A stretch of 64,000 bases of DNA from a bacterium (GTDB taxonomy: Bacteria; Patescibacteriota; Minisyncoccia; 1-14-0-10-42-19). Made by a program: the position numbers and the translations under genes. The notes beneath the pieces are model-generated. The model was not told the DNA's origin. It saw only the letters and a program-made list of their open reading frames with translations, and did not search any database. The stretch spans positions 14,568 through 78,567 of the forward strand of contig JAUYHD010000029.1 of assembly GCA_030690215.1 (NCBI GenBank), written 5' to 3'. Shown here piece by piece: positions 5,033-45,416 of the stretch (position 1 is the first letter of the stretch; every line of letters begins with the position of its first letter).

Positions 5033-5722
5033 AAGGCTGTTATCTTGGCTGCAGGCGAAGGAACCCGCATGCGGCCGCTCACCAACGACACGCCAAAACC
5101 CATGCTTTTTGTTTCAGGAAAGCCGCTTCTTCTGCATATGCTGGACTCTCTCCCTGAAGAAATAAATGAAATCATTCTTGTTACCGGTTATCTTGAAGAA
5201 AAGATCAAAGCATATTTTGGAGAACAATTCGGGAGATTCCGCATCCGTTACATAAAGCAGAACGAAAAAAAAGGCACGGGCGACGCGCTATTTCTGTGCA
5301 AGCCGTTTTTCGCAAAAAACGAGCGTTTTCTCGTAATGTACGCTGACGACCTTCATTCAAAAAAAGCGATAGAAGAAGTTATAAAACACCCCTTAGCCAT
5401 ACTTGTAAAAGAAGTTGAAAACCCTCGAGCATTTGGCGTGATTACAACTGATGAAAACGGACATATCCGCGAATTTGTAGAGAAGCCCGAAGTCCCGCCC
5501 TCCAACCTCGTATCAATAGGAGTGCAGTTGCTTGACGAGCGAATTTTTTCATACCCGCTGGAAAAACACGCAAACGGGGAATATTATTTAGTAGACGCGG
5601 TGGCGCACATGGCTCGCGACTACAAAATAAAAACGATACATACTGATTTTTGGATCCCTATAGGATACCCGGAAGATCTCAAAAAAGCGGAAGATTACTT
5701 CAATCAAAAAAAGTCCGCCTAA
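5030..5722 (+). CDS. sugar-phosphate nucleotidyltransferase (G1P thymidylyl/uridylyltransferase-like)
   Basis: MKAVILAAGEGTRMRPLT N-terminal NTP-transferase signature; 230 aa. Confidence 0.8.
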   Translation: MKAVILAAGEGTRMRPLTNDTPKPMLFVSGKPLLLHMLDSLPEEINEIILVTGYLEEKIKAYFGEQFGRFRIRYIKQNEKKGTGDALFLCKPFFAKNERFLVMYADDLHSKKAIEEVIKHPLAILVKEVENPRAFGVITTDENGHIREFVEKPEVPPSNLVSIGVQLLDERIFSYPLEKHANGEYYLVDAVAHMARDYKIKTIHTDFWIPIGYPEDLKKAEDYFNQKKSA

Positions 5723-5788
5723 TCGGCGAGACTTATTGCCCGCCTAGTCGGCGAGGCTTTCAGAAGAATGGCCCGCCTAGTCGGCGAG
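5715..5788. repeat. three tandem copies of 16-17 bp hairpin unit CCGCCTARTCGGCGAG between convergent genes
   Basis: copies at 5715-5730, 5739-5755, 5772-5788 with 8 and 16 bp spacers. Confidence 0.7.
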
Positions 5789-5819
5789 GATTGATGAGAA
5801 ATCCCCGTTAAAAGGCTTT

Positions 5820-8456
5820 TTATAGAACAATATTTACAAGACGTTTTGGAATTACAATTATTTTTTTCGGCGGACTGCCTTTCAGCAATTCTTGTATGTG
5901 CGGGCGCGAGAGCGCCTGCTTTTCCATTTCTTCTTTTGATACGTCTATCGGCGCTTGAAACTTATCGCGCATCTTTCCATTGATCTGGACTACCAACTCA
6001 AATGTTTCTTCTTTTATTTTTTCTTGGTCAAACGAAGGCCACAAAGACACATGGATTGATTTTTTTTCTCCAAGCATTTCCCATAATTCTTCGGCGAGAA
6101 AGGGGGCGAAAGGCGCGAGCAATTGCAAAAATATTTTTAAATCGTTATGAGTTATGAGCAATGAGTTACTCTCAAATTCTCGCAATAAAATCATTAACTG
6201 CGATATTGCGGTATTATAATTCAGCGACTCTATATCTTCCGTCACCTTTTTAATTGATTGATGTAATATTTTTTCAATTTTGTTTCGTCCCCCTGATTCC
6301 TGATTCTTAATTCCTAATTCCTGTCCCAGTTTCCATACTCGTTCCAAAAACCGCGTTATTCCTTTAATACCATCGTCCCGAAAATCCCCTCCTTGTTCAA
6401 ACGGCCCCAAAAACATGAGATACATACGGAGCGCATCGGCGCCATATGCCTTGATATATATGTCGGGGTTTACAACATTACCGCGCGACTTGGACATTTT
6501 TGCGCCATCTTTTATTAAGAGGCCGTGTGCCCGGAATTGTGCAAACGGTTCATTAAAACCAACCAATCCCCAATCGTAAAATACTTTCGCAAGAAAACGA
6601 GTATATAAGAGATGAAGCACTGCATGTTCCGCTCCCCCGATATACATATGCACCGGCAACCACTTCGCCATCATTTCTTTAAATGATGAATTTTTAATTT
6701 TTCCGCCCGAGGCGGATCCGCCTTTGGCGGACAATTTCTCCCGACGTAAAGTCGGGATCCCGACTTCATTATTTAAAGATATAAATGGTACGTCGGGACA
6801 ATTTTCAAATTTCATTAAATACCCAATATAGTACCATGCGGAATCTAAGAAGGTGTCCGATACATCGGTTTCTCGGCGCGCTTTTTGCCCGCATTTCGGG
6901 CAGTCGATTTCGTAAAACTTTTTTACCGCTGCAAGAGGCGACGTAGTGCTTCCCGTGGGCTTAAACTCTTTTACATACGGCAAAACAACCGGTAAATCTT
7001 TTTCAGGAACCGAAAACCAGCCGGGATTTTCTAATTCCCCTTTGTTATATTCCTCTTTGTCCTCAATTCTTAATTCCATATTCTTAATTCTCTGAGCGCA
7101 GTTTTCGCAGAAAACGAGCGGTATTGGAGGCCCCCAATATCGCTGACGGCTGATTAACCAATCGCGAAGACGATAAGTCGTTGTTCTTTTTCCTCCTACT
7201 TTTTTGGCAATTTCCCATTTTGCCTTCTCCGATTCCATGCCATTAAATACATCCGAAGCAACTAAATGACCCTTCCCTGTATACGCCTCATCCAATATAG
7301 GGCATGTTTTTGCGGGGTAATGCGGGCATACAACCATAATCATTGGGAGATTATATTTCTTTGCAAACTCAAAATCTCTTGAGTCGTGCGCAGGGACTGC
7401 CATAATAGCACCCGTTCCCACCCCGCCTAGCACATAATCGGCAACCCAGATTGGGATTTCTTCATTATTTGCAGGATTGATTGCCATCACGCCTTCCAAT
7501 TGCACCCCTGTCTTGTCTTTATTATCGGTAATTCTTTCTTCTTCAGTCTTACTTTTTGTTTTCTCTATATACGCGCTAATTTCTTCTTTATTCCTGATTC
7601 TTGATTCTAACTTCTTAAGTAATTCGTGTTCTGGCGCAAGAACCATGTATGTCGCGCCAAACAATGTGTCGGGTCTTGTCGTAAAAACCCTGATACTTGA
7701 TTCAAAATTCTTAATTCTAAATTCTATTTCTGCGCCTTCACTCTCGCCTATCCAATTTTTCTGCGCGATTTTTACTTTCTCAGACCAATCAATATTCTTC
7801 AAATCATCCAACAAGCGTTTTGTATAATTCGTAATTTTGAAAAACCACTGCTCAAGTTCTTTTTTTATTACGATGCTGTCGCATCGTTCACATTTTCCTT
7901 GAATCACCTGCTCATCGGAAAGAACCGTTTTACACCCGGGGCACCAATTTACTTTTGCTTTTTTCCGGTAAGCCAACCCCCTTTTAAACATCTGCACAAA
8001 AATCCACTGAGTCCAACGGTAGTATTCAGGATCATATGTTTCGAGCTTTTCGTTCCACGCAAAACCATTGCCAATCATTCGGAGCTGGCTATAAAAATTC
8101 TTTGCGCTTTTTTCTGCAAGCTTCATCGGATGCGCCCCGATTTTGAGCGCGTAATTTTCCGAATGAATGCCAAATCCATCGAGTCCTATCGGCTCAAGTA
8201 CATCATATCCCTCCATCCGCTTTTTGCGACCATAAATATCAGCGCCTACAAATGCGTACATATTACCCACATGCAAACCTTCCGCCGACGGATACGGGAA
8301 CATCATGAGGTTATAAAATGGCCGCCTATGGCGAGCCTCGCTTGCGGCGGGCTTTTTTGCTCCGCCGCCTGGCGGATTTAAGTCGGGCTCATATAGCCCG
8401 TCGTCTTGCCATTTTTTCGTCCACTTTTTTTCTATCTGTTTAGGATTATATCTCAT
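5820..8456 (-). CDS. leuS: leucine--tRNA ligase
   Basis: class I aaRS HMGH-like (PYPSAEGLHVGN), KMSKS (KMSKSRGN), WLPVHMYIGGAEHAVLHLLY LeuRS hallmark; 878 aa. Confidence 0.95.
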   Translation of the reverse strand: MRYNPKQIEKKWTKKWQDDGLYEPDLNPPGGGAKKPAASEARHRRPFYNLMMFPYPSAEGLHVGNMYAFVGADIYGRKKRMEGYDVLEPIGLDGFGIHSENYALKIGAHPMKLAEKSAKNFYSQLRMIGNGFAWNEKLETYDPEYYRWTQWIFVQMFKRGLAYRKKAKVNWCPGCKTVLSDEQVIQGKCERCDSIVIKKELEQWFFKITNYTKRLLDDLKNIDWSEKVKIAQKNWIGESEGAEIEFRIKNFESSIRVFTTRPDTLFGATYMVLAPEHELLKKLESRIRNKEEISAYIEKTKSKTEEERITDNKDKTGVQLEGVMAINPANNEEIPIWVADYVLGGVGTGAIMAVPAHDSRDFEFAKKYNLPMIMVVCPHYPAKTCPILDEAYTGKGHLVASDVFNGMESEKAKWEIAKKVGGKRTTTYRLRDWLISRQRYWGPPIPLVFCENCAQRIKNMELRIEDKEEYNKGELENPGWFSVPEKDLPVVLPYVKEFKPTGSTTSPLAAVKKFYEIDCPKCGQKARRETDVSDTFLDSAWYYIGYLMKFENCPDVPFISLNNEVGIPTLRREKLSAKGGSASGGKIKNSSFKEMMAKWLPVHMYIGGAEHAVLHLLYTRFLAKVFYDWGLVGFNEPFAQFRAHGLLIKDGAKMSKSRGNVVNPDIYIKAYGADALRMYLMFLGPFEQGGDFRDDGIKGITRFLERVWKLGQELGIKNQESGGRNKIEKILHQSIKKVTEDIESLNYNTAISQLMILLREFESNSLLITHNDLKIFLQLLAPFAPFLAEELWEMLGEKKSIHVSLWPSFDQEKIKEETFELVVQINGKMRDKFQAPIDVSKEEMEKQALSRPHIQELLKGSPPKKIIVIPKRLVNIVL
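6703..6798. repeat. composite GC-rich palindromic repeat (two element types) lying in-frame inside leuS
   Basis: 6703-6730 ccgcccgaggcggatccgcctttggcgg (1 mismatch to 23777-23804); 6739-6798 ~85% identical (reverse complement) to 45048-45096 intergenic element. Confidence 0.75.
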
Positions 8457-13187: not shown

Positions 13188-14828
13188 ATGCGAAAAATAC
13201 ATATTGTATTGCTTCTCCTCATCCTCGGGATTGCCGTTTTCCTGCGCGTATTCAATCTCCAAGACATACCGCCCGGCGTCTATCCGGATGTCGCGATGAA
13301 CGGCAACAACGCGCTCTACACGCTTGATACGGGAACTCCGGAGGTATTTTATCCCGAAAACAACGGCAGAGAGGGTCTTTTTATCGTTCTATTGGCGTGG
13401 CTCATGTCCATATTCGGCCAAGATATATGGGTACTGCGGTTGCCGTCCGCATTATTCGGAATTTTGACCGTGTTTGGGACATATCTTCTTACCAAGGAGC
13501 TTTTCCGCGAAACCCATAAGGACAAAGCTGAGGTTATAGCGCTACTTGCGGCTTTTTTTATAGCAACATCATTCTGGCATATTAATTTTTCACGAATAGG
13601 ATTTCGGGCGATTATGGCTCCGTTCTTCCTCACATTCGGATTTTATTTTCTTTGGCTGACGCTTCGGAAAGATATTTCCGCTACCAAAAGAATTCTTGCC
13701 GCAACGTTGGGCGGGGTTTTCTTTGGGGGAGGATTTTATTCTTATATTGCATACCGAGTAATGCCCCTTTTGCTTATTATACCGGCCGTACGCATGTGGC
13801 AGATACAGGGATTTAAAAATATAGGTAAAAAAGGATGTATATGGTGTTCCTTTGCGCTTTTCCTCTTTTTCTCATTCGTTGCGGTGGTGCCGCTTGGAAT
13901 GTATTTCTTAGAACATCCGGCTGATTTTTTGGGACGCACCGCGCAAATTTCTGTCTTTGATACCCCATCCCCCCTCAAAACCCTCACAACAAATACGATC
14001 CAGACGCTCGGAATGTTCTGGTTTTCGGGAGATACAAATTGGCGACATAACTTTTCGGGAGCGCCTCAACTTTGGTTTCCTGTCGGAATATTATTCGCGC
14101 TCGGCATCCTAGTGCACGTCTCATCTCTCCGCAAAAAAAAATATTGGCATACATCGCTCTTCCTTTTGGGGTGGATTGCGCTTGGATTGCTGCCGGTCAT
14201 TTTTTCAAACGAGGGGATCCCGCATGCGCTTCGCGCGCTTCTTGTAATCCCGCCTGTCATGATTCTTGCCGCGCATGCATTCTCGTCAATTATCCATGGG
14301 ACGGCGGACTGGCTTGCCACAAAAGAACACTACGCCCCGCAATCAAAAAAACAGCTTAAAAGAATCCAAAAAGAACTACTCGTACTGCTTTTTGTCTTTC
14401 TTGTTGCGGGAGCATCACAAGCATATAACCAATATTTTATCCGTTGGGCATACCACCCCGAAACATACAATGCCTCAAGCGGTAATTATACGGGGCTCGG
14501 CATCTGGCTTGCGCAACAACCGAATGAGATAAAAAAATACATTATTATCAATGCCGGTGGAACGCCCGTACACATTCCCGGAAGCACAGAATCCATTCCT
14601 ATGCCCTCCCAAACGATTATGTTCCTCACTGACAGCTGGAGCGCCGATAAACAAAAAGAGAAAAATATTGTATATCTTCTCCCCGAAAAAATAGAATTGC
14701 TTACCTGCAGCGATCACTGCATTGTCGCAATGCTTGAACGCGATGAAATGCTTCGCTTTCGTATCCGCGAACATATCCCTGAACTTCATCTGTCCCCGGA
14801 GACCGGCTACCTTATTCTCCAAAAATAA
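13188..14828 (+). CDS. GT-C fold glycosyltransferase (ArnT/PMT family, GT39/83-like)
   Basis: MRKIHIVLLLLILGIAVFLRVFNLQDIPPGVYPDVAMNGNNA N-terminus and polytopic topology typical of ArnT/PMT; ORF track start 12945 likely an upstream extension. Confidence 0.75.
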   Translation: MRKIHIVLLLLILGIAVFLRVFNLQDIPPGVYPDVAMNGNNALYTLDTGTPEVFYPENNGREGLFIVLLAWLMSIFGQDIWVLRLPSALFGILTVFGTYLLTKELFRETHKDKAEVIALLAAFFIATSFWHINFSRIGFRAIMAPFFLTFGFYFLWLTLRKDISATKRILAATLGGVFFGGGFYSYIAYRVMPLLLIIPAVRMWQIQGFKNIGKKGCIWCSFALFLFFSFVAVVPLGMYFLEHPADFLGRTAQISVFDTPSPLKTLTTNTIQTLGMFWFSGDTNWRHNFSGAPQLWFPVGILFALGILVHVSSLRKKKYWHTSLFLLGWIALGLLPVIFSNEGIPHALRALLVIPPVMILAAHAFSSIIHGTADWLATKEHYAPQSKKQLKRIQKELLVLLFVFLVAGASQAYNQYFIRWAYHPETYNASSGNYTGLGIWLAQQPNEIKKYIIINAGGTPVHIPGSTESIPMPSQTIMFLTDSWSADKQKEKNIVYLLPEKIELLTCSDHCIVAMLERDEMLRFRIREHIPELHLSPETGYLILQK

Positions 14829-14830
14829 AT

Positions 14831-16681
14831 ATGGTACATAAACGCCCCGCAAACACTATAGCTCTTATCTTGCTTGCGCTATTCTTCGTTCTCATGCTTT
14901 TTTCGGCACTTCCGGAATCGGCAATCATGGACGAACTCGCCCACATCCCTGCATCCTACTCGTATGTAGCGAAACAGGATTATCGTCTCAACCCCGAACA
15001 TCCTCCGCTTGCAAAAGATCTTGCGGGCATCCCGCTTCTTTTTCTCAACCTTAATTTTCCAATCGATGTCTCCGCGTGGACTACCGATATAAACGGACAA
15101 TGGACAATGGGGTCTATCTTTTTATATGAGGCAGAAAATAATCCTGACTCTATTCTTTTTTGGGCGCGTTTCCCGCTCATGCTTTTAGCGCTTCTTTTCG
15201 GGTGGCTTTTGTATCGCTGGGCATCAGGCGCGTATGGGGGAAAGGTCGGGCTTCTTTCGTTATTCTTTTTTACGACATCGCCAACTATTATCGCGCATGC
15301 GCGCTATGTGACAACCGATCTTGCGGCGGCCTTTGCGTTCTTTATAGGGCTCGCCTCTTTTTTTACCTATCTTCTCTCTCCCTCCAAAAAAACGCTTGCT
15401 CTTGCGGGTATCGCATTCGGTATTGCGCAACTTCTTAAATTTTCGCTTATTCTTCTCATACCCATATATGTTGTCTTGGGAACACTATGGGTGTTCTTGT
15501 TCCATCTTGATCATATGCGCGCATTGCCCTCCTTCTCAAAACGACTTTTTCATTTTCTACACCACGAAATAAAACTCATTGGCAATCTTGTTCTCATTGG
15601 TCTCATCGGCGTAATCATCATATATGCTGTATACGCATTCCATGTTTGGAATTATCCCGAAGACATGCAAATTCGAGACATGACATATAACTTAGAAACC
15701 GTGCGCTTCCAGCCTATCGCGGAGACCCTCATCACTCTCTCCGACTTCCCCGTGCTTCGCCCGCTTACGCAATACGCGCACGGTCTTTTAATGGTTATTA
15801 ACCGAGGCACACACGGAAACACTACATACTTTTTAGGAGAGGTTACCAATAACGGGTGGTTCCATTATTTCCCAACAGCATATCTTCTTAAAGAACAGCT
15901 TGCTCTACACATACTTACGCTTTTAGCCATCATTCTTTTTCTTACAGCAATCGTCAGAAGTCATGAAAAAACAATCTTCTCTCTTCTTGAGTGGATGCGG
16001 GACAATTTCGTGATCACCGGCAGCATATTTTTTATTGTTGTATATTGGGCTAGCTCTGTCGCAAGCCCGCTTAACATAGGGGTGCGCCATGTTTTACCTA
16101 CATTCCCGTTTATTTTTCTCATCATATCCCGTGAAATTATCCGCTGGACGCATCACGTCACGTTTACCGATCCCCGAACGCTTAAAGAATGGCTCATCTC
16201 TCTCTACGAACTTGCGATAAAGCGCATCCCTAAATTCATTTTTATTGCAGCCACACTTGTCTGGATGGGGATTACGACACTTCTTGCGTTCCCCCATTAT
16301 CTTCCTTACTACAATGTACTTGGCGGCGGGACAGAGCATGGTTATCAATATATTACCGATTCAAATTATGATTGGGGGCAAGATTTAAAACGCCTCAAAA
16401 CATTTGTTGACGAAAATAGTATTGAGCATATCCGGCTTAATTACTTCGGCGGCGGATCGCCCCGCTATTATTTGGGGAATACATACGAAGAATGGTATTC
16501 GGCGAAAGGAGAGCCTGAAGAAGGATGGTTTGCGGTATCCGCAACGCTCCGGCAAGGATCGTGGGGAACGCCCATCCGCGGATGGGAAACAAAACCCGAA
16601 GACAGCTATAGCTGGCTTCGCGATAAAGAACCGGTCGCGCGTGCGGGGTATTCAATATTTATCTATAATCTTGCCCCGTAG
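14831..16681 (+). CDS. GT-C fold glycosyltransferase (phospholipid carrier-dependent, PMT_2-like)
   Basis: polytopic; ALPESAIMDELAHIPASYSY / HPPLAKDLAGIPL loop motifs typical of GT-C mannosyltransferase-like enzymes. Confidence 0.7.
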   Translation: MVHKRPANTIALILLALFFVLMLFSALPESAIMDELAHIPASYSYVAKQDYRLNPEHPPLAKDLAGIPLLFLNLNFPIDVSAWTTDINGQWTMGSIFLYEAENNPDSILFWARFPLMLLALLFGWLLYRWASGAYGGKVGLLSLFFFTTSPTIIAHARYVTTDLAAAFAFFIGLASFFTYLLSPSKKTLALAGIAFGIAQLLKFSLILLIPIYVVLGTLWVFLFHLDHMRALPSFSKRLFHFLHHEIKLIGNLVLIGLIGVIIIYAVYAFHVWNYPEDMQIRDMTYNLETVRFQPIAETLITLSDFPVLRPLTQYAHGLLMVINRGTHGNTTYFLGEVTNNGWFHYFPTAYLLKEQLALHILTLLAIILFLTAIVRSHEKTIFSLLEWMRDNFVITGSIFFIVVYWASSVASPLNIGVRHVLPTFPFIFLIISREIIRWTHHVTFTDPRTLKEWLISLYELAIKRIPKFIFIAATLVWMGITTLLAFPHYLPYYNVLGGGTEHGYQYITDSNYDWGQDLKRLKTFVDENSIEHIRLNYFGGGSPRYYLGNTYEEWYSAKGEPEEGWFAVSATLRQGSWGTPIRGWETKPEDSYSWLRDKEPVARAGYSIFIYNLAP

Positions 16682-16872
16682 AGCAATATCGCATAATAAG
16701 CTATGCGTTCGCCGCTGGAGGTCAAAAACTATCCCATGTTCTTACTTTTTTGCAAATGGTATTTTGTATAAGAGCTTATAAGAACACGCTATGCGATATT
16801 GTCTTACGGGGTTTGACAAAAACTAAGAAAAGACATACCCTATAAAAAGAATGTTCCTAAAAGGAGTCAATA

Positions 16873-18904: not shown

Positions 18905-19867
18905 ATGGCAAAAATCGTTGTTGGAGTACTGCGCGGAGGCCCTTCCTCTGAATATGACATTTCGCTCAAAACTGGCGAAAATGTTTTGCGTCATCTTCCC
19001 CAAGAAAAATACAAACCCTTGGATATTTTTATTTCAAAAGCAGGCGAATGGCACTTAAAAGGCCTTGTCCGCCCGCCCGAAAAAATACTACAGCATATTG
19101 ATGTCGCCTTTAACGCTATGCACGGTGAATATGGAGAAGATGGAACAGTACAAAAAATTTTCCGTGATCACGGGATCCCCCACACAGGATCGGAGGTTAT
19201 GGCATCCCGCTTTACCATAAAAAAAGATACAGCAAAAAATCTACTGGAACGCGCGGGATTAAATGTACTCCCAGGAATAACCGTGCGACCCGATGACGAT
19301 ACACAAACGACACTCACGCTCGTGCATAAAAAAATGGCGCCTCCGTGGGTAGTTAAACCGAACGGAAAAGGATCGTCCGTGGGAGTTTCGATAGTAAGGA
19401 CTTTGCCGAATTTGGAAAAAGCAATCTCTGAAGTATTCCGCATTGACTCCTTAGTACTCGTAGAAAAATATATAAAAGGCAGGGAGGCAACATGCGGTGT
19501 CCTTGAAAATTTCCGGAATGAAAAATATTATGCGCTTCCGGTTGTGGAGATAATCCCGCCACAAGGAAAGTTTTTTGACTATCAGTCAAAATATGACGGC
19601 TCAACCAAAGAGGTTTGCCCCGGAAGATTCAGCAAACGCGAAGCAACACACCTCCAGGACGCAGCAATACGTGCGCATAAAGCGCTTGGATGCAGGCATT
19701 ATTCTCGAACCGATATGATTCTTGCAAACGATACGGTATGGGTTCTTGAAACAAACACCCTCCCGGGGCTTACTTCAGAATCTCTACTCCCTAAATCCGC
19801 AGAAGCGATAGGGCTTTCTTTCCCGGGCTTATTAGACCACTTGGTCGCTCTCGCACTTAAGAAATAA
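18905..19867 (+). CDS. ddl: D-alanine--D-alanine ligase
   Basis: ATP-grasp Ddl N-terminus MAKIVVGVLRGGPSSEYDISL and C-terminal motifs. Confidence 0.9.
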   Translation: MAKIVVGVLRGGPSSEYDISLKTGENVLRHLPQEKYKPLDIFISKAGEWHLKGLVRPPEKILQHIDVAFNAMHGEYGEDGTVQKIFRDHGIPHTGSEVMASRFTIKKDTAKNLLERAGLNVLPGITVRPDDDTQTTLTLVHKKMAPPWVVKPNGKGSSVGVSIVRTLPNLEKAISEVFRIDSLVLVEKYIKGREATCGVLENFRNEKYYALPVVEIIPPQGKFFDYQSKYDGSTKEVCPGRFSKREATHLQDAAIRAHKALGCRHYSRTDMILANDTVWVLETNTLPGLTSESLLPKSAEAIGLSFPGLLDHLVALALKK

Positions 19868-21128
19868 TAGCGCCCCCAAGCACCTGCCTGCCGGCAGGCA
19901 GGTTTCCCTCCTCCATTGAATAGAAAACTATTGATTGGCCGGGTGTTACTGCGCGTTGCGGATCTTTAAATTGAATTAAGAATTTTGAATTAGGAATTAA
20001 GGTTTCTTCCGTTATTCTTGATTCATAATTCATAATTCGTGCTACTTGTAGCGGTTGGCGATATCGTATTCGCACCTCACATTCTAAAGGCAATTCCGGA
20101 ACAACTCCGGATATCCAATGCGCGTCGCGAACGCGCAATTCCGTTTTAAATAATGCCTCTTCATATGGACCTTCGGCAACCGTAATCGTATTGATCGAAA
20201 CATCTTTATCGGTTACATAATATGGGATGCCCCCACCCACCCCTATGCCGTGACGCTGGCCGATGGTGTAAAATTCTGCCCCTTCATGCGTGCCTATTTC
20301 TTTTCCGCCGGTAGTCAGAATTTTCCCGGAACGCTTCGGCAATACTTCCTGCATAAAAGAACGGAAATCGATATTACCAACAAAACAAAGTCCCTGGGAA
20401 TCTTTTTTTGCATGTGTCGGAAGTCCAAACTTTTTTGCCATAGCGCGGACCTCTCTTTTTTCATATCCCCCAATCGGAAATAATGCGTGCTTCAATTGGT
20501 CTTGCGTTAGCGTCCATAAAAAATAACTTTGATCTTTGTTTATATCTCTCGCAACATGTAGCATATAGCGTGCGGCAGATTTCTCATTTTGAGTTTTGAA
20601 CTTTGCGCTTTGAGCTTTCCTTACATAATGTCCAGTTGCAATATAGTCTGCCCCCAAACTACGCGCCTTATTTAAAAAAACTCCGAATTTAATTTCTTTG
20701 TTGCACATGACATCTGGATTTGGCGTAAGCCCCGCTTTATATTCACGCACCATATAATCAAACACTGATGCGCGGTATTCTTTTTCGAGATCAAATACAT
20801 AAAATGGAATATGCAATTTTTCTGCGACTCGTCGGGCATCCTCCGCGTCTTGTGCGGATGTACAATACGCCCCCTCTGACCAGCACTTCATATAGGCGCC
20901 GATTACTTCGTATTCCCCACTTTGAACCAACAAAGCAGCCGCAACGGACGAATCAACCCCGCCGGACATCGCTACGAAGACCTTTTTACCCCGAGTAGTA
21001 TTGAGGGGCTTGCCCCGAGTGCTATCGGGGGGCTTGCCCCGAGCCCCGCCAGAAGCGGGATCGAGGGGCTTGCCCCGAGCCCCGCCAGAAGCGGGATCGA
21101 GGGGTTTGTTGTTTTGATTAATTGACAT
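19857..21128 (-). CDS. mnmA: tRNA-specific 2-thiouridylase MnmA with Pro/Gly-rich repeat N-terminal extension
   Basis: PP-loop KVFVAMSGGVDSSVAA, catalytic Cys regions; N-terminal ~47 aa encoded by tandem repeats. Confidence 0.88.
   Translation of the reverse strand: MSINQNNKPLDPASGGARGKPLDPASGGARGKPPDSTRGKPLNTTRGKKVFVAMSGGVDSSVAAALLVQSGEYEVIGAYMKCWSEGAYCTSAQDAEDARRVAEKLHIPFYVFDLEKEYRASVFDYMVREYKAGLTPNPDVMCNKEIKFGVFLNKARSLGADYIATGHYVRKAQSAKFKTQNEKSAARYMLHVARDINKDQSYFLWTLTQDQLKHALFPIGGYEKREVRAMAKKFGLPTHAKKDSQGLCFVGNIDFRSFMQEVLPKRSGKILTTGGKEIGTHEGAEFYTIGQRHGIGVGGGIPYYVTDKDVSINTITVAEGPYEEALFKTELRVRDAHWISGVVPELPLECEVRIRYRQPLQVARIMNYESRITEETLIPNSKFLIQFKDPQRAVTPGQSIVFYSMEEGNLPAGRQVLGGAIIS
20990..21112. 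repeat. GC-rich tandem repeat, 36-bp unit x2 full plus partial copies, in-frame in mnmA 5' end
   Basis: gccccgccagaagcgggatcgaggggcttgccccga at 21041-21076 and 21077-21112; partial copies 21001-21040. Confidence 0.85.
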
Positions 21129-23465: not shown

Positions 23466-23480
23466 GCACCCGCATAAATG

Positions 23481-23640
23481 AATAACCGCACCGCAAACAG
23501 TGCGGTATTCGCGCTGATTGCGGTCTTGCGGTTATTCCACCCAGCACATAAGTTTAAACAACGTCATTTTTTAACCGGCTTTTGTTCGATGGATACTGCA
23601 TTCATACAGCGACGTGCTATTAAACTTATGTGCTGGGTTT
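23481..23640. repeat. structured repeat element: outer 10-bp IR (aataaccgca/tgcggttatt) + 18-bp perfect-stem hairpin cccagcacataagtttaa...ttaaacttatgtgctggg
   Basis: homologous, in opposite orientation, to 45155-45280. Confidence 0.7.
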
Positions 23641-23664
23641 ATTATCTGCATACCGCATCCACCT

Positions 23665-23732
23665 CGTTAGAAATTTCCTCAATAAAAAAACAACATAAAA
23701 CGCGTAATTTTCTTATACGGTAATTTCTAACG
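23665..23732. repeat. 11-bp perfect inverted repeat cgttagaaatt / aatttctaacg enclosing 46 bp
   Basis: member of CGTTAG...CTAACG(GG) hairpin family. Confidence 0.6.
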
Positions 23733-23776
23733 GGGTTCACCCTCGCAAGAGACGACCCAGCTTCGCCAAAGCTTTT

Positions 23777-23804
23777 CCGCCCAAGGCGGATCCGCCTTTG
23801 GCGG
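23777..23804. repeat. GC-rich palindromic element ccgcccaaggcggatccgcctttggcgg
   Basis: 27/28 identical to 6703-6730 inside leuS. Confidence 0.8.
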
Positions 23805-23845
23805 AAGCGAGGTAAGGGCTCACCATGGGTGGTTGCGGGCAGATA

Positions 23846-23880
23846 ATAAAATGCCCGTTCCGCATTTTGCGGAACGGGCG
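23846..23880 (-). terminator. rho-independent terminator for 23888..26461 gene
   Basis: perfect 11-bp stem gcccgttccgc/gcggaacgggc, U-rich tail on minus strand. Confidence 0.7.
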
Positions 23881-23887
23881 TAGAGTA

Positions 23888-30100: not shown

Positions 30101-30120
30101 TTATAAACTATTCGCACAAA

Positions 30121-30192
30121 TAAAAAAAGGCGTCCTGTGTGTTGACCCCGAAATGCATGTGTTGCATAACGGGGCAAGCAGGACGCCTGTGT
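30121..30192 (-). terminator. terminator hairpin with conserved 42-nt interior, downstream of pepF-1
   Basis: stem GGCGTCCTG/CAGGACGCC + 8 U on minus strand; interior identical to 32162-32203. Confidence 0.7.
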
Positions 30193-30193
30193 G

Positions 30194-32020
30194 TTATTTA
30201 TTTTTTATACGAGATAAAAGAACTTCCATTTCCTCTATCGGCTTTTTGAGCGTATGGATGGCATTAACCCAAAACTCGGGAGATGAAAGATCTTTGCCGA
30301 TCGTTTTTTTTGCAACTGCTTCGGGGGTGTCTGAGCCAGACAACATAAGGAATTTTTCATATTTCGGAAGAAAATCTTCCCCTTCTTCTTTAAAAAGAGC
30401 GAAAAGACCCCTGCTTAGTAAATATCCGAACGTATACGGGAAATTGTAAAACATAACTCCAGTAATATAAAAATGGAGTTTTGTCGCCCAAAAATATGGG
30501 TCTTCGCCGCCTTTTTCAAGCACATCCCCAAATATAGCGCGCTGCTTTTGAACCATAATATCATTCAATCGCGCAACGCTTAATTCATGGGAGGCACGCT
30601 CTTCATATACCGCTTTTTCAAATTCGTAGCGAACCGGAATATCTAACAAATAAATCGCGCCGTGATTAATTTCCGCATCAAGCATAAGCGCTTTTTCTTC
30701 ATCAGAAACTTCGGGGTCTTTCATAATCCCCTCCGCAAGAATCATTTCTCCAAATGTAGAAGCAGATTCCGCAAGAGTCATCGGATAGTGACGACCAAAT
30801 GTTCGCACGCCCCTCATGATGTTTTCATGAAATGCGTGTCCTGATTCATGCGCAAGAGTTAATATGTCTCCTATGGTATTGTTATAGGTCATAAAAATCC
30901 TGGATTCGTTGATGAGGAGTGATCTGCTACAAAATCCGCCCGGTCGTTTCCCGGTGCGCGGCTCCCAATCAATCCACCGCTCATTGCATAGGTTGCGGAA
31001 AAATCTTCCGAGTTTTGGATATGCTCCGAAAAATGATTTTTCAACAAGCTGTTTTGCTTTTCCCCAATCAAGATGCGCGTGTATATCCAATGGAGCGCCC
31101 AAATCAAACCATGCGATATTTTCTCTTCCCATCATTTTTGCCTTTAACCCAAGAATTTTTTTCGGTAGGGCAATTTCCGAATATACCGCTTCAAGCATTG
31201 CTTCAAGCGTTTCCTGCTTTATTCCCGCATCAAATAAAGCGGTATCAAGAAAATAATTCGTCCCTCTTTTTTGGCCAAGCGTCAGCCGGGTACCCGAAAT
31301 TGCGTTCAACGCAGCTGCAGGAATGTCAGCTATCTTTGCCCACGCTTCGTTCCCCCCTCTAAATGCCGCTTCTCGTATCTCTCGGTCCGGCTTTTCCATA
31401 AGAGAGCGCCTTTGCGAAAAGGGTTTTATTTCTTTCCGCCCGTCAGGGTACTGCATCTCAAATGTCAATTTCCCCGAAGTGTTATTATATAAACGACCCC
31501 ACGCTTCAATCCCATCCACCCCAAGATCCGCGGCAAGTATTTCCATCTCTTTTGACATGGTCATGTTTGCCCTTTTTCGCATCCGAGCAAGATAATAAAG
31601 TGCGGCTCCTGCATTGCCCATAAAAGCGTCTCGCGCAATGAACGTATGGAATACGCTATCGGGCACGCCCTTAAGCGCTCTATCAAGCTCAACTTCCAAT
31701 CTTGCGTATTCGGCTTTAAGACGAGACATACCCGCCTGCTCTTCAGTATATTTCTCATTATCCGCATCAGCAGATGAAATGCATTCTACATATGATTCCA
31801 GATGAGAAAAGCGGGCCTGGATACCTTCGAGCGCAAGAAATATTTCTTCCCATTCGTTTTGATTTGAATCGCCCAACGAATCAAGCAATGATGCTTTTTT
31901 TGTAAAATCCTCTACATCCTTCCTAAAATTTCTTTTGAACGCCCTCATCCCAGGGCCATTGAATGCAAGAAAATACCTTGAGAGGTCCCAATTTCCATCC
32001 CTATTTACAGTCGCGTGCAT
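30194..32020 (-). CDS. pepF: oligoendopeptidase F (M3B)
   Basis: HESGHAFH zinc motif, M3 fold; start MHATVNRDG after AAGGAGG. Confidence 0.85.
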   Translation of the reverse strand: MHATVNRDGNWDLSRYFLAFNGPGMRAFKRNFRKDVEDFTKKASLLDSLGDSNQNEWEEIFLALEGIQARFSHLESYVECISSADADNEKYTEEQAGMSRLKAEYARLEVELDRALKGVPDSVFHTFIARDAFMGNAGAALYYLARMRKRANMTMSKEMEILAADLGVDGIEAWGRLYNNTSGKLTFEMQYPDGRKEIKPFSQRRSLMEKPDREIREAAFRGGNEAWAKIADIPAAALNAISGTRLTLGQKRGTNYFLDTALFDAGIKQETLEAMLEAVYSEIALPKKILGLKAKMMGRENIAWFDLGAPLDIHAHLDWGKAKQLVEKSFFGAYPKLGRFFRNLCNERWIDWEPRTGKRPGGFCSRSLLINESRIFMTYNNTIGDILTLAHESGHAFHENIMRGVRTFGRHYPMTLAESASTFGEMILAEGIMKDPEVSDEEKALMLDAEINHGAIYLLDIPVRYEFEKAVYEERASHELSVARLNDIMVQKQRAIFGDVLEKGGEDPYFWATKLHFYITGVMFYNFPYTFGYLLSRGLFALFKEEGEDFLPKYEKFLMLSGSDTPEAVAKKTIGKDLSSPEFWVNAIHTLKKPIEEMEVLLSRIKNK

Positions 32021-32150
32021 GTATAAAACCTCCTTGTAAAATAGCTTATTTGAATATGATAGTATCATAAAAAATAAATTTTGTATATAATATCTACCCT
32101 TCTGTGTTGCTCACCCTCCCAAATTGTGTATTAAAAAATAGGCGCTCAAA

Positions 32151-32222
32151 ACAAAAAAAGACGTCCTGTGTGTTGACCCCGAAATGCATGTGTTGCATAA
32201 CGAAGGCACAGAGGACGTCTCA
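32151..32222 (-). terminator. terminator hairpin with conserved 42-nt interior, downstream of pepF-2
   Basis: stem GACGTCCTCTGTG/CACACAGGACGTC with compensatory changes relative to copy 1, + U-run. Confidence 0.7.
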
Positions 32223-32236
32223 TGCGTTATTTGTTT

Positions 32237-34048
32237 TTATGAAAGTGTTGCGTACATCTCTTCGGCTTCTTTCAGCATTTCGCGCATAATTCGTATCCCG
32301 GAATTCCAAAAAGCAGGATCGATTATGTCTACGCCTACATGCTTTTTTAAAAGAATATGCGGCGCATCGCTCCCGCCGGCAGAAAGTAAACTCATATACC
32401 CCGGCACAAACGCCTGCCCTTCTTCCAGATATTTTTGATATAGCGCGAGCACCAAGAGTTCGCCGAACGAATATGCGTAACAATAGAATGGCGAATGAAT
32501 AAAATGAGGTATATAGAGCCACCACCATGCGTATTCCTTGGTAAGCGTCAGCGAACCGCCAAACATTTTTTTATTCTCATCAATCCATAATTCATTGATG
32601 TGCTCTGTCGGGATTTCTCCTTTTTCTCTGCGCTCTCTATGAACACGTTCTTCAAAACGGGTAAAAATAACCTGACGGTATACGGTAGCAAATATTTCTT
32701 CCAACTTGCCCATAATAAGCGCCATTTTTTTCTTTGGATCTTTTTCTTGTTTTTTCAAGCTGTCAAAAAGAAGTATTTCGGCAAAAACACTCGCGGTTTC
32801 AGCAGTAGGGAGAGGTGTGTCGGCTCCAAACAATCCTTGCTTGCGCGAAAGATACTGATGAATGCCATGCCCAAGCTCATGCGCGAGCGTCATAACATCG
32901 CGCAGACGCCCCATGTAATTTACGAGGACATAGGGATGCGCGCTCGGAACGGTGCCGTGGCTAAACGCTCCTCCACGCTTTCCTTTCCGCGGTGCCGCAT
33001 CAATCCATTTGTGGACAAAAAATTTCTCGGCAATGTCTCGTGCGTCTTGAGAAAATACCCCGAACGAATCAAGCACCATGCGTTTCGCATCAGAAAAAGC
33101 AATTCTCTTTTCATCGAATACCACAGGAGCATACCTGTCATAGTCATATAACACGTCAAGACCAAGCACCTTTTTCTTAAGCTCATAATAGCGGTGCGGT
33201 ATATCATAATGTTCCTCGGAAACTTTTAAAAACGCATCTACTATATCCTGGCTTATTTCATTCTCAAGATTCCGGAATGCCATCGGGTGCCCGAAAGACC
33301 GAAGCCTGTCGTCAATCGCGCAATCCTGAAGAATGGTGTTGAAGATAAACGTAAGAGTTGTTTTGTTCTCTTGGAGGCCTTTCGTAAGTGCGTCTGCCGC
33401 TGATTTTCTAAGGGTACGGTCGGAATGATATAAGAACGCGAGTATTTCGCTCTCGCTCATCTTTTCTGTTTTTTTGCCTCTTCTCATCTTAAAAACAATA
33501 TTATTTCCAATCTCATCAAAAAGACGCGAAAAGGCCTCTGAGCCGGTATTGTTTTTTTCGCTTAGTATTTTTTCTTCCGGCTCGCTAAGCTTATGCGGTT
33601 TTTCAATTCTTTCTTTCTCTAAATAGTGCCTATATCGAGAGAGGGTTTCTTCTCCGAGCAATTGTTCTGCTACGCTATCGGAAACGCCCACCCACTCTAA
33701 TTCAAAAAACAACACATGCTTATTTATTTCTGTTGCTTTTTCTTGCATCCTGGCAAGAAATGCTCCGTATTCTTGCTTGCTCGTATCGCTCGCGTACATC
33801 AAATACGCGTATGCAAGAATTTTGTGAACGCATTCCGTTATTTTTTCCAGACCAGAAACCGCATCAAATAGAAAAGACGCGGTAAGCGAATCGGAATGTA
33901 TCTTGCCCCTATAGCGCGCGCCAAATTCTTTCGCCCTCAAAAGAGCGGACGCAATATCGTTCTCAATAGCCGGGTCTGTATGCCCCGTATATAAATCGGA
34001 TAAATCCCACGCGGGGATTTTCTCATTTTTTGCAGATTGTGTGTTCAT
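32237..34048 (-). CDS. pepF: oligoendopeptidase F paralog (M3B)
   Basis: HELGHGIH zinc motif; ~40% identical to pepF-1 by eye. Confidence 0.85.
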   Translation of the reverse strand: MNTQSAKNEKIPAWDLSDLYTGHTDPAIENDIASALLRAKEFGARYRGKIHSDSLTASFLFDAVSGLEKITECVHKILAYAYLMYASDTSKQEYGAFLARMQEKATEINKHVLFFELEWVGVSDSVAEQLLGEETLSRYRHYLEKERIEKPHKLSEPEEKILSEKNNTGSEAFSRLFDEIGNNIVFKMRRGKKTEKMSESEILAFLYHSDRTLRKSAADALTKGLQENKTTLTFIFNTILQDCAIDDRLRSFGHPMAFRNLENEISQDIVDAFLKVSEEHYDIPHRYYELKKKVLGLDVLYDYDRYAPVVFDEKRIAFSDAKRMVLDSFGVFSQDARDIAEKFFVHKWIDAAPRKGKRGGAFSHGTVPSAHPYVLVNYMGRLRDVMTLAHELGHGIHQYLSRKQGLFGADTPLPTAETASVFAEILLFDSLKKQEKDPKKKMALIMGKLEEIFATVYRQVIFTRFEERVHRERREKGEIPTEHINELWIDENKKMFGGSLTLTKEYAWWWLYIPHFIHSPFYCYAYSFGELLVLALYQKYLEEGQAFVPGYMSLLSAGGSDAPHILLKKHVGVDIIDPAFWNSGIRIMREMLKEAEEMYATLS

Positions 34049-35917: not shown

Positions 35918-36238
35918 GCATACCCCGTTAGGCTAAATCAAATGAAGAAGACCAATACCCCCGCAGGCGATTCCTCAAAAATCTGCGTCCCGCAGTAGAT
36001 TTGAGATAACGCTCACGCTGTATGGCGTCTTCTTGATTTGTGCAAGCCTCAAGATAAATGATAATAAATGGTAGTCTCATTTTTGTTGAAAAGTTATATC
36101 CCCGTGTATGCTCTTCTAATCGTTTTTTAATATTCTTTGTACATCCTACATACATATTGCCATCCTTTTTGCTCCGCAATACGTATGTCCAGAAGAGCAT
36201 ATTTGATTTTGCCATACGGGGCATACCCCGTTAGGCTA
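35918..36238 (-). mobile_element. 303-bp GIY-YIG nuclease cassette bracketed by 18-bp direct repeats gcataccccgttaggcta
   Basis: DR at 35918-35935 (contains stop) and 36221-36238 (contains start); period 303 bp. Confidence 0.55.
35928..36224 (-). CDS. GIY-YIG nuclease family protein (YhbQ/UPF0213-like)
   Basis: FWTYVLRSKKDGNMYVGCTKNIKKRLEEH ... RERYLK matches GIY-YIG core. Confidence 0.8.
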   Translation of the reverse strand: MPRMAKSNMLFWTYVLRSKKDGNMYVGCTKNIKKRLEEHTRGYNFSTKMRLPFIIIYLEACTNQEDAIQRERYLKSTAGRRFLRNRLRGYWSSSFDLA

Positions 36239-36580
36239 CATCGAAAAACGTCTTCCTTGCCCCGTAAGACAATATCACATGGTACGTCATGCATTCGCCG
36301 TTCATTCACCATAGCATAGCTGTACTCCCCATTTCTTCTGACAGCGACGCTCTAATAAATGACGTACAAGAATGCGTTATGTGATATTGTCAAACGGGGC
36401 TTGCAAAATCGCAGAATATATTTCGATGGTTACCTTTTATTGTACTTTTACTAATAATACTTCGTATCACCTCCGTAAGACGTAAAGATTTTGCTTTTCC
36501 GCCGGAGGCGGATCTGCTCGCCTCGTCTTCGCCTCGGCGAGGCGGGCCTTCGGCATGACGATGTTGCCATACGGGGCATA
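36211..36580. repeat. 355-bp non-coding segment bracketed by 15-bp direct repeats gccatacggggcata; contains repeat-family sequences
   Basis: DR at 36211-36225 and 36566-36580; interior holds 36367-36414 (~80% to 16781-16830) and GC-rich palindrome 36488-36550. Confidence 0.5.
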
Positions 36581-38368: not shown

Positions 38369-39091
38369 CTAGAATACCGGATTCAATGAATAAATCATGT
38401 AAAAACCAAGAATGATGAGGAACAGGCCAACCGAAAGGCGCATAAGTCCTCGGTGCTTGTGCCTCCATGCCTCTAAGCGTTCTGACGATGTGCCAAAATA
38501 GGCAAACGCAATAATAATAAGAAGCGGAAGAACAAAAATAAAATTATACAAGAGCAACAACGGAACGGCGGTTGCATACGCCCCCTTGGACAGAAGCCCC
38601 AGTACCGCGAGATACGGCGCACCCGTACACGGCAATTCAACAAGTACGACAAAAATGCCGAGCACAACCATGGTCAACAAAAGCAGGCTAAAATGACGGG
38701 ACTGCATCCGTTCAATCCACATAGTATACGATTTAATGCGCGCAGACGCTCCGGGAATCATCTGCAACGAAAATCCTTTTCCATACCAAAAATAATCTTT
38801 AATTTCCAAAAATCCCGCAAAAATGGCAATCAATGCGACAATCCAATAAAATACTCCCGCAACATCGGGGCTCAAAGCCGCAAACCGAAGAATACCGAAC
38901 CCCAACACTAAATACGTAAGATACACCACGAGTGTATATGTAAGCCCCCCGGCAAGCATTCGGTTTTTGCTCTTAAATACGCGCGTCATAAAAGCAATCA
39001 AAAACACTAACACGCCAATCACGCATGGATTGATGCTGTCTAAGAGCGCTGCTCCGATAATAATGCCCAATGTAAGATTTCCTTCAAGCAT
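38369..39091 (-). CDS. ccdA: cytochrome c biogenesis / thiol-disulfide transmembrane electron transporter CcdA (DsbD family)
   Basis: LDSINPCVIGVL Cys motif in TM1, 6 TM. Confidence 0.7.
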   Translation of the reverse strand: MLEGNLTLGIIIGAALLDSINPCVIGVLVFLIAFMTRVFKSKNRMLAGGLTYTLVVYLTYLVLGFGILRFAALSPDVAGVFYWIVALIAIFAGFLEIKDYFWYGKGFSLQMIPGASARIKSYTMWIERMQSRHFSLLLLTMVVLGIFVVLVELPCTGAPYLAVLGLLSKGAYATAVPLLLLYNFIFVLPLLIIIAFAYFGTSSERLEAWRHKHRGLMRLSVGLFLIILGFYMIYSLNPVF

Positions 39092-39109: not shown

Positions 39110-39162
39110 GTCCCGCTATTTACTTTAAATATTTTTAAATTATTGTATAGCGGGATCCCGCC
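39110..39162. repeat. GC-rich hairpin element gtcccgcta...tagcgggatcccgcc
   Basis: same architecture as 45048-45096 and 6739-6798 with covarying stem positions. Confidence 0.65.
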
Positions 39163-39198
39163 ATTTTATACGTTATAATTTTTGAATACATGGCGGGA

Positions 39199-45022: not shown

Positions 45023-45416
45023 AGTATAAAAATTTTTTAATGCTAATGTCCCGACGCACCATCATACTTTTTGTAATAATGAAGTCGGGATCCCGATATC
45101 CTTTATCATATTTTTTAATAGATATCGGGAAATAAATTTTGTCTTAATTTGCACACCCATCACATAACTTTGTATTCATAAATATTTTTTTCGACACAAA
45201 GTTATGTGCTGGGTAAAGTCACCGCACTGTTCACGAAGCAAGTTTTGATGTACAAAACGTAGCTGAGTGATTACAGTGCGCAACCCCGCCTATTCCTCGG
45301 CATATTTATTTTATAATACTTCGTGAACATGCGAGGTCTTCGCCCATTCAACTACTCGCTCGCGCTCGCAGGAATGGGCGGGGGTTTGGCTACCCGCCAA
45401 AGTTTGCTTCGCAAAT
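45023..45416. repeat. 394-bp highly structured non-coding insert inside atp operon (multiple nested inverted repeats; repeat-family members)
   Basis: 45048-45130 GC-rich hairpins (homologous to 6739-6798); 45155-45213 hairpin homologous to 23540-23637; 45221/45273 and 45231/45321 inverted repeats; 45351-45390 hairpin. Confidence 0.7.

Follow-up and report, generated by a model that had tools for sequence, protein, structure and literature searches.

The leuS Gene and Its Palindromic Inserts

The subject of this report is a pair of small, GC-rich palindromic repeats, designated elements A and B, which lie in the reading frame of leuS, the gene for leucyl-tRNA synthetase (LeuRS), in a bacterium of the Patescibacteriota. 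The stretch of DNA analyzed, hereafter referred to as the window, comprises 64,000 nt of JAUYHD010000029.1 (GCA_030690215.1) and corresponds to contig positions 14,568 to 78,567 of the forward strand. The leuS gene, identified by its open reading frame (ORF) and by homology, extends from 5820 to 8456 on the minus strand and encodes a protein of 878 amino acid residues. This protein matches the Thermus thermophilus LeuRS (1h3n) with an E-value of 3.7e-199, and is 100% identical to P0001, a protein named leucine--tRNA ligase from a metagenome-assembled genome (MAG). The nearest other LeuRS proteins belong to the Patescibacteria (candidate phyla radiation, CPR), the closest being from Candidatus Niyogibacteria with 67-72% identity. 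Both the KMSKS motif and the HVGN motif of the clade are intact.

The repeat-bearing segment of leuS encodes ...NCPDVPFISLNNEVGIPTLRREKLSAKGGSASGGKIKNSSF... and is positioned just before the WLPV-YIGG-EHA block. Element A, located at 6702-6731 on the minus strand and corresponding to residues 576-585, is a 30-nt, near-perfect palindrome centered on GGATCC. It is formed by two 15-nt hairpin units, TCCGCCcgaGGCGGA followed directly by TCCGCCtttGGCGGA (TCCGCCnnnGGCGGA twice). Since each unit starts with TCC and ends with GGA, two units in tandem generate the central GGATCC. The coding strand reads TCC GCC AAA GGC GGA TCC GCC TCG GGC GGA, or SAKGGSASGG, and the element sits between a Leu codon and a Lys codon. 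Element B, at 6739-6798 on the minus strand (residues 553-573), is a 60-nt double hairpin with the coding-strand arrangement TCCCGAC-27 nt-GTCGGGA followed by TCCCGAC-5 nt-GTCGGGA. Its insertion point is inside a Trp codon (TG^G), and the encoded peptide is C-PDVPFISLNNEVGIPTLRR-E. Both elements were delineated by their sequences, their hairpin folds, and an empty-site comparison. Separating them on the same strand are 7 nt of host sequence at 6732-6738, which read GAAATTG in the coding direction and belong to the ancestral ...W-K-L... codons, as indicated by the match to the orthologue P0024 once A and B are deleted. Given that both lengths, 30 and 60 nt, are divisible by three and that neither element contains a stop codon here, the reading frame continues through both.

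In silico deletion of exactly 6739-6798 and 6702-6731 restores ENWKLKIKNSSF. At the protein level, removal of A and B converts a stretch of 67 residues into FLDSAWYYIGYLMKFENWKLKIKNSSFKEMMAKWLPV, which is 37 residues in length, and the same loop length is observed in P0024 and P0025. The rejoined DNA reads GAA AAT TGG AAA TTG AAA ATT AAA AAT TCA TCA TTT, with 33 of the 36 bases matching P0024. As no duplicated bases are left at the junctions of A or B after the removal of 30 + 60 nt, there is no target-site duplication. The empty-site comparison shows A and B in leuS to be two separate, precise, in-frame insertions 7 nt apart. A first-pass annotation of this DNA had described two types of palindromic repeat lying in frame in the leuS loop before the WLPV-YIGG-EHA block, and in this respect it was correct: the insertion is real and adds ~30 amino acid residues.

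Residues 548-595 of the protein align opposite 513-525 of the T. thermophilus enzyme, with the insert falling between 512 and 526, and ~35 residues are extra. Compared with orthologues from its own clade, the protein has exactly 30 residues more, of which 20 are contributed by B and 10 by A. The insertion site is presumably the linker that leads from the Zn-binding/CP2 module back to the second half of the Rossmann fold in the T. thermophilus structure. An alignment of orthologues, proposed earlier as a check, revealed that most LeuRS proteins lack the ~30-residue segment and that the loop from FLDSAWYY to WLPV is short in most of them; its length, measured from FLDS to WLPV, ranges from 32 to 67 residues among the orthologues listed. 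In an AlphaFold model built on a 28-sequence alignment (mean predicted local distance difference test score, pLDDT, of 70), residues 550-604 display pLDDT values of 26-44 and no secondary structure. The 30 added residues are presumably translated into a disordered loop at the protein surface, one that LeuRS can tolerate.

Relatives of both elements are found elsewhere in the window, in intergenic regions where no strand is assigned to them. A copy of element A (TCCGCCcaaGGCGGATCCGCCtttGGCGGA) is located at 23776-23805, in the repeat-rich spacer between yceG and an ORF of 857 codons, and the segments 6699-6731 and 23773-23805 are 97% identical over 33 nt. The identity of 27 out of 28 nt previously noted between 6703-6730 and 23777-23804 was borne out, and no such match arose in 100 dinucleotide-preserving shuffles of the sequence. 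The 15-mer AAGTCGGGATCCCGA has 4 matches in the window versus 0.07 expected. A single A-type hairpin unit (TCCGCCggaGGCGGA), recognized by repeat match and hairpin, occurs at 36498-36512. In all, the window contains two A doublets, one single unit, and one A-type hairpin with a 4-nt loop. The GGATCC hexamer itself is not over-represented in the window (14 sites versus 12.7 expected), and only those of its sites that are embedded in longer palindromes are element junctions.

Three double hairpins with the architecture of B are present in the window, two of which have TCCCGAC stems. The intergenic B-type double hairpin at 45049-45130, in the 394-nt gap between atpH and atpA, is arranged as TCCCGAC-28 nt-GTCGGGA followed by TCCCGATAT-22 nt-ATATCGGGA, and its first hairpin, loop included, is a relative of the leuS element. 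Indeed, the 22 nt at 6752-6773 match 45075-45096 exactly in inverted orientation. The first-pass annotation had placed the whole of 6739-6798 at ~85% identity with the reverse complement of 45048-45096. This figure stands for 6752-6799 (43 matches, 4 mismatches, and 3 gaps, or ~86%), but the 13 nt at 6739-6751, which form the short second hairpin, have no partner. The third double hairpin, at 39111-39198, follows the plan of B with other stems (TCCCGC-33 nt-GCGGGA followed by TCCCGCC-30 nt-GGCGGGA) and is positioned just upstream of the gene at 38369-39091. Both of these intergenic double hairpins have long, AT-rich loops. Rfam and ARAGORN searches of the window yielded no RNA family, ribozyme, intron, or tRNA, and thus the intergenic copies do not belong to any known RNA.

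Two of the spacers mentioned above, the non-coding atpH-atpA gap (45023-45416) and the region upstream of yceG (23466-23887), are both packed with repeats, and an inverted-repeat family, ACCCAGCACATAA(C/G)TTT, is common to them (23527-23557, 23620-23650, and 45155-45226).

Recurrence in LeuRS Orthologues and in Other Genes

A survey of the 120 closest LeuRS proteins revealed A-derived peptides in at least 10 of them, at four or more sites. In the loop that harbors the elements in the window, P0088 and P0008 have A in frame 0, and P0082 has it in frame 2 (PPKADPPQAE). Other copies follow the DMGxxxF motif (P0035, P0039, and P0080), lie in the editing-domain region (P0035, frame 2), or occupy the variable region after RVWKL (P0004 and P0072). 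The leuS gene of P0035 (L002, around residue 628) contains the very same 30-nt element as the window, split after GGATCC by a nested 30-nt, GC-rich hairpin segment, and the nested copy reads SAKGGS-PPSPGFGRAG-ASGG. The different frames and positions indicate that these were independent insertions. The state of preservation varies as well: the copy in P0088 has one mismatch, that in P0008 is decayed, and P0015 contains, at the very TG^G point occupied by B in the window, a 30-nt insert that is unrecognizable. Judging from the sequences, this range from intact to decayed looks like neutral ageing.

These observations bear on the suggestion, made in the first-pass annotation, that the repeats have been domesticated, whereby the repeat-derived 30 residues would have gained a function in LeuRS, for example a contact with tRNA or a partner, and would be kept by selection. 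The leuS ORF is intact with its catalytic motifs present, and in several other lineages repeat-derived peptides are likewise found in this loop, such that extra residues here are at least harmless. The insert is absent from most orthologues, however, including the closest one (P0002), and the inserts at this site vary from lineage to lineage in the type of element, its frame, and its precise position. Disorder is predicted for the region (pLDDT <50). The stems are perfect in the window but decayed in P0008 and P0015, which suggests a recent neutral arrival followed by drift rather than a conserved peptide. No evidence of function was encountered, and the combination of intact-to-decayed copies, absence from orthologues, and predicted disorder leaves the term "domesticated" unsupported; it is the pattern of neutral passengers. 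We consider a gain of function to be quite unlikely.

Note that many Patescibacteria LeuRS proteins are 940-1200 residues in length (for example, the homologues P0021, P0031, P0033, P0082-P0089, and P0097) and that the long forms hold whole extra domains, namely NUDIX (PF00293) and alpha/beta hydrolase (PF00561/PF12697) domains. The enzyme thus tolerates far larger additions in this group.

There is probably a further hairpin-repeat insertion near the N-terminus of the window LeuRS, at residues 27-46 (NPPGGGAKKPAASEARHRRP), encoded by approximately 8321-8378 on the minus strand and identified by alignment and hairpin. The segment holds TCCGCCaggcGGCGGA (8361-8376; a TCCGCC...GGCGGA hairpin) and then a nested, GC-rich hairpin, and the insertion amounts to 13 residues extra relative to the T. 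thermophilus enzyme and to most orthologues. At this N-terminal site other LeuRS orthologues bear different repeat-like peptides (RQAQGK and FAKATKGKPDL), and element A is found at the equivalent position of other class I synthetases, such as that in L034. The AT-rich "GAATTAAGAATT / IKN" repeats of leuS and mnmA were also considered as insertions and were rejected, for they are mostly ancestral K/I/N-rich coding sequence common to orthologues.

Beyond LeuRS, element A was located at more than 119 genome loci from many Patescibacteria lineages by an exact-pattern search with one genome per species, and the B architecture at more than 120 metagenome loci by a search for the exact stem architecture. 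Both counts are lower bounds. The loci listed for A and B are mostly from the Patescibacteria, and records bearing A are also labeled Omnitrophota, Kiritimatiellae, Verrucomicrobiota, Planctomycetales, Lentisphaerae, Ignavibacteria, Chloroflexota, and others. Several of the outside loci hold 2-3 copies of A or B. In the A consensus, the base preceding CCGCC is nearly always T and that following GGCGG is nearly always A, with variable loops that are mostly nnA and Tnn. The commonest form of B is 36 nt in length with two 4-nt loops. In a Kiritimatiellae MAG, A constitutes the 5' end of a ~197-nt repeat that is present in several copies of ~97% identity (L008, 4569-4764 and 6390-6585; L054, 7176-7366), the remainder of which would translate as ...LRSGQALHCVQDDN.... 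A phage vector for the elements was considered and rejected: only 2 matches to A were found in IMG/VR, with no sign of phage carriage.

All of the data come from metagenome assemblies, and palindromes can arise as library or assembly artifacts. Yet the same elements occur in frame across independent projects and assemblers, and decayed versions are seen at equivalent positions in orthologues. Chance similarity, a possibility raised in the first-pass annotation, is ruled against by the shuffles and the 15-mer statistic, according to which chance would yield no matches. The other alternative raised there, namely that the elements derive from leuS, is excluded by the presence of identical elements in hundreds of loci unrelated to leuS. 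The likelihood of chance, artifact, or a leuS origin is, in our estimation, very small.

The elements had also been described as otherwise intergenic, which is not supported. Of the 124 copies of A sampled, 64 are inside open frames of at least 750 nt, the definition of intragenic employed here, and those hosts that were checked against Pfam are housekeeping genes. The eight A-host ORFs so examined encode AspRS, AdoHcy hydrolase, CysRS, ATP synthase beta, a release factor, TsaD, a MurA-type enzyme, and a class I synthetase, and in 8/8 the element lies inside the span of the Pfam domain. Copies of B likewise occur in recognizable proteins of housekeeping type, assigned by eye, such as those resembling ThrRS, GatB, and UvrA. 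The intragenic copies are strongly biased in frame, with 56/64 of the A copies read as SAxGGSAxGG (binomial p = 3.5e-19 versus one third). For B, the length is a multiple of three in 91/126 copies (p = 7e-19) and in 48/56 of those in long ORFs, and all three frames are used (VPTxVGIPTxVGK, SRRxxGSGSRPxxSG, and SPDxxSGSRPxRRE). The intergenic relative of B in the window contains TAA TAA TGA in the frame that is kept open in the leuS copy by a 1-nt difference. As such biases in frame, length, and stop codons are expected only of translated sequences, the intragenic copies appear to be translated.

The same biases argue against removal of the segment from the mRNA by a tiny intron-like excision, or its bypass by the ribosome. 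Removal would relax the pressure on frame, length, and stops, yet the intragenic copies are strongly skewed toward lengths that are multiples of three and toward stop-free forms, with A favoring one frame; moreover, the window contains no detectable Rfam family, ribozyme, or intron. Excision or bypass is very improbable, even though the Patescibacteria are unusually rich in tRNA and rRNA gene introns (PMC13011429) and the element boundaries are sharp, with precise removal restoring the ancestral sequence.

The hairpins might instead be kept for a role in the DNA or mRNA, such as ribosome pausing that aids co-translational folding, mRNA stabilization, or binding by a protein that recognizes palindromes centered on GGATCC, with the peptide being a by-product. 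When folded as RNA, the A + B region of leuS has a predicted energy of -48.9 kcal/mol (z = -6.2), a very stable structure within the coding sequence. In addition, the stem sequences are the same across phyla while the loops vary, and the intergenic B-type copies are just upstream of gene starts. The decayed copies in P0008 and P0015, at equivalent LeuRS sites, nonetheless show no compensatory maintenance of pairing. Furthermore, the elements occupy many unrelated positions in many unrelated genes, and most LeuRS orthologues do without them. A nucleic-acid role is on this evidence unlikely.

Insertion Sites and Candidate Mobilizing Enzymes

The flanks of A are T-rich upstream and A-rich downstream, with TT at -3/-2, and those of B are G/C with a G at -1. 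The flank counts suggest that A prefers TTN^NAA as its target and that B prefers WG^CW. The genes surrounding the elements were surveyed at ~240 loci (~1.5 Mb), where the ORFs located up to 1.5 kb away were clustered in an unbiased manner. No gene for a RAYT (REP-associated tyrosine transposase, a Y1 enzyme; REP, repetitive extragenic palindrome) was found among the window ORFs or the recurrent neighbors of the elements, and no longer element combining the ends of A or B with a transposase was observed in the ~1.5 Mb of loci.

The only recurrent neighbor of a non-housekeeping type was a small GIY-YIG nuclease, present at 12 loci with a median distance of ~70 nt. In the loci that have the arrangement, which were chosen for carrying A or B (L131, L132, L134, L136, L137, L147, L148, L220, L029, L118, and L170), a complete tRNA gene follows the nuclease gene and a 5' tRNA fragment precedes it. 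The fragment is interrupted by the hairpin element at the D-arm or the anticodon loop, as in L148, where GCCGGCGTAG is followed by B and then by CTCAG. A tRNA lies within 500 nt of 27/125 copies of B versus 5/117 copies of A. The nuclease was rejected as the mobilizer: four loci picked by protein homology to the GIY-YIG gene of the window have no A or B hairpins, and in three of the four the gene is flanked on either side by inverted repeats of its own, of the CCCCGTA type. Only the subfamily located next to tRNA genes shows the association. It may reflect target preference, since the WG^CW site of B fits the conserved tRNA sequence TAG^CTC, together with the neutrality of tRNA fragments, rather than mobilization. 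A weaker possibility is that movement or fixation of the elements may be linked to the small tRNA-adjacent GIY-YIG nucleases; a homing enzyme of the GIY-YIG type, SegB, is known from a tRNA cluster of T4 (PMC2330249).

The GIY-YIG gene of the window (PF01541) is a stand-alone gene of 98 codons on the minus strand, at 35928-36224. At its start is the sequence TATGCCCCGTATGGCAAAATC, which is repeated three times, ~178 nt apart, within the region 35928-36580. An inverted-repeat unit of ~150 nt (36258-36406) adjoins the gene, and one arm of this unit recurs at 16670-16714. Close homologues elsewhere are flanked by ~25-nt inverted repeats (ATGCCCCGTAAGGCAAAACCGAT...). The sequence arrangement suggests a small GIY-YIG cassette with derivatives that resemble MITEs (miniature transposable elements with inverted repeats).

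Further repeats in the window are of other types. Three tandem 25-nt, GC-rich hairpin units (CCCGCCTAGTCGGCGAGG...) lie at 5710-5792, between the convergent 3' ends of leuS and an NTP-transferase gene. The mnmA gene (19857-21128, minus strand), which encodes the tRNA 2-thiouridine synthase, has an N-terminal extension of ~45 residues in which KPLDPASGGARG is repeated; the extension is encoded by tandem 36-nt, GC-rich hairpin repeats (21000-21095) and precedes the PF03054 domain, which starts at residue 48. Finally, a 54-nt sequence, 96% conserved, is found at 30118-30171 and 32149-32202, at a matching position beside each member of a tandem pair of M3 oligopeptidase paralogues (30194-32068 and 32237-34048).

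Relation to Known Repeats and Interpretation

The closest parallel to A and B is provided by the Rickettsia palindromic elements (RPEs), which, according to a MITE review that summarizes the work of Ogata et al. in 2000 (PMC10969869), are ~150 bp in length and form ten families confined to Rickettsia, each encoding a conserved peptide. Like the RPEs as described there, A and B are multi-copy palindromes that are found in frame in unrelated, conserved housekeeping genes of a reduced genome, with the ORF kept and the peptide tolerated. They differ in being three to five times smaller, at 30-60 nt, and in being built from 15- or 18-nt hairpin units. They encode ~10-20 low-complexity residues rather than the conserved peptide module of an element of 100-150 bp, and they occur in many Patescibacteria lineages and in records labeled as other phyla. 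The likeness drawn here is one of behavior. On balance, A and B would seem to behave as RPE-like elements, of a variety previously undescribed as far as the literature searched. No prior description of them in the Patescibacteria was found in that literature, including the tRNA-intron survey (PMC13011429), although its coverage was incomplete and prior work is possible.

By definition, REPs lie outside genes, and a GTAG or CGTC tag is one of their features (PMC3733652). With these repeats and their composites, the bacterial interspersed mosaic elements (BIMEs) and the REP doublets (REPINs), A and B share short (20-40 nt), GC-stemmed palindromes, frequent doublets, many copies, and the absence of target-site duplications. 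The extragenic copies lie between convergent or co-directional genes, as does that at 23776. In contrast, the ends of A and B are TCC...GGA with no GTAG or CGTC tag, roughly half the copies of A are inside genes, and a RAYT gene turned up neither in the window nor beside the copies. MITEs are typically longer than A and B. They have terminal inverted repeats and target-site duplications and are thought to be derived from insertion sequences that lack the transposase (PMC10969869, PMC5896051). A and B resemble Coxiella QMITE1, ERIC, BOX, and the Anabaena MITEs in being non-autonomous, in having inverted-repeat ends, and in that some copies are in ORFs and read through (PMC10969869, PMC5896051), although in elements that are palindromic as a whole the ends are trivially inverted repeats. 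They differ from MITEs in the lack of a target duplication, in size (30-88 nt), and in that no parent insertion sequence was seen.

The hairpins and the absence of target duplications are also reminiscent of elements derived from IS200/IS605 (PATE-like), which insert 3' of a fixed tetra- or pentanucleotide and are served by a Y1 transposase in trans, but A and B display only a loose flank preference (TT at -3/-2 and G at -1, respectively), and no Y1 transposase was found in the window or beside the copies. Methanocaldococcus jannaschii reportedly contains palindromic repeats with coding potential, attributed to a study by Suyama, Lathe, and Bork in 2005, that lie in ORFs and can be read in frame on either strand. 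These are said to differ from A and B in being archaeal, species-restricted, and of different sequence. Analogies only can be drawn with the mitochondrial GC clusters of yeast, the double-hairpin elements of Allomyces, the hairpin elements of sponges (PMC2800124, PMC8811140), and the coding palindromes of Nematomorpha (PMC6649704). These too are small, GC-rich single or double hairpins spread through AT-rich, compact genomes and in coding regions with the frame kept, but they belong to organelle genomes and are unrelated in sequence, whereas A and B are found in free-living or episymbiotic bacteria and are common to many lineages.

The interpretation that we favor, with a probability of roughly 0.83, is that leuS holds two independent insertions of very small, selfish palindromic repeats that are tolerated in a disordered, length-variable loop. 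According to the mechanism envisaged, non-autonomous mobile repeats would insert at short AT-rich or palindromic sites. With a unit length that is a multiple of three and no fixed stops, an insertion would add a short peptide and leave the host protein untruncated. Selection would then keep those copies that preserve the frame, avoid stops, and lie in permissive loops, read in the case of A as the flexible SAxGG. By analogy, the lack of a target duplication would be accounted for if the hairpins were recognized by an HUH/Y1 transposase such as those of the RAYT or IS200/IS605 type.

Several points weigh against this interpretation. Pfam scans of the window ORFs revealed no transposase or other mobilizing enzyme, and there was no transposase family among the clustered ORFs within 1.5 kb of the elements at the ~240 loci; mobility is thus deduced from distribution only. 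The nearest LeuRS proteins are only 67-72% identical, and consequently a recent presence/absence polymorphism is not visible. The translation of the leuS insert is deduced from the frame and length statistics, and the AlphaFold model is mediocre overall, with its mean pLDDT of 70 and 28 aligned sequences. The collection scans for A and B demanded exact stems and are therefore blind to selection on hairpin pairing. Lastly, all of the listed records with A or B are MAGs or metagenome contigs.

A broader proposal, which we put forward tentatively and at somewhat less than even odds, is that A and B represent an undescribed superfamily of ultra-small, codon-phased, double-hairpin mobile elements spread over the Patescibacteria and other uncultivated phyla. 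Its members would be built from 15- or 18-nt units with TCC...GGA ends and a GGATCC junction, and would insert without duplication at short palindromic sites. Element A would be stop-free in all frames unless a loop supplied a stop. Such a superfamily would constitute a recurrent source of lineage-specific loops in the essential proteins of genome-reduced bacteria.

From a practical standpoint, the recognizable peptide signatures SAxGGSAxGG, PPKADPPxAE, and VPTxVGIPTxVGK would allow the inserts to be masked when proteins are aligned, placed in phylogenies, or modeled, and the presence or absence of copies could act as a strain-level marker. If the mobilizing enzyme were to be found, A and B would be among the smallest mobile DNA elements known. 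The findings also offer a testable mechanism for many unexplained lineage-specific insertions in CPR proteins. If the favored interpretation is true, then even the most streamlined bacterial genomes let selfish palindromes write loops into aminoacyl-tRNA synthetases, ATP synthase, and release factors, and it is the unit length and the stop-free design of the elements that make such insertions survivable.

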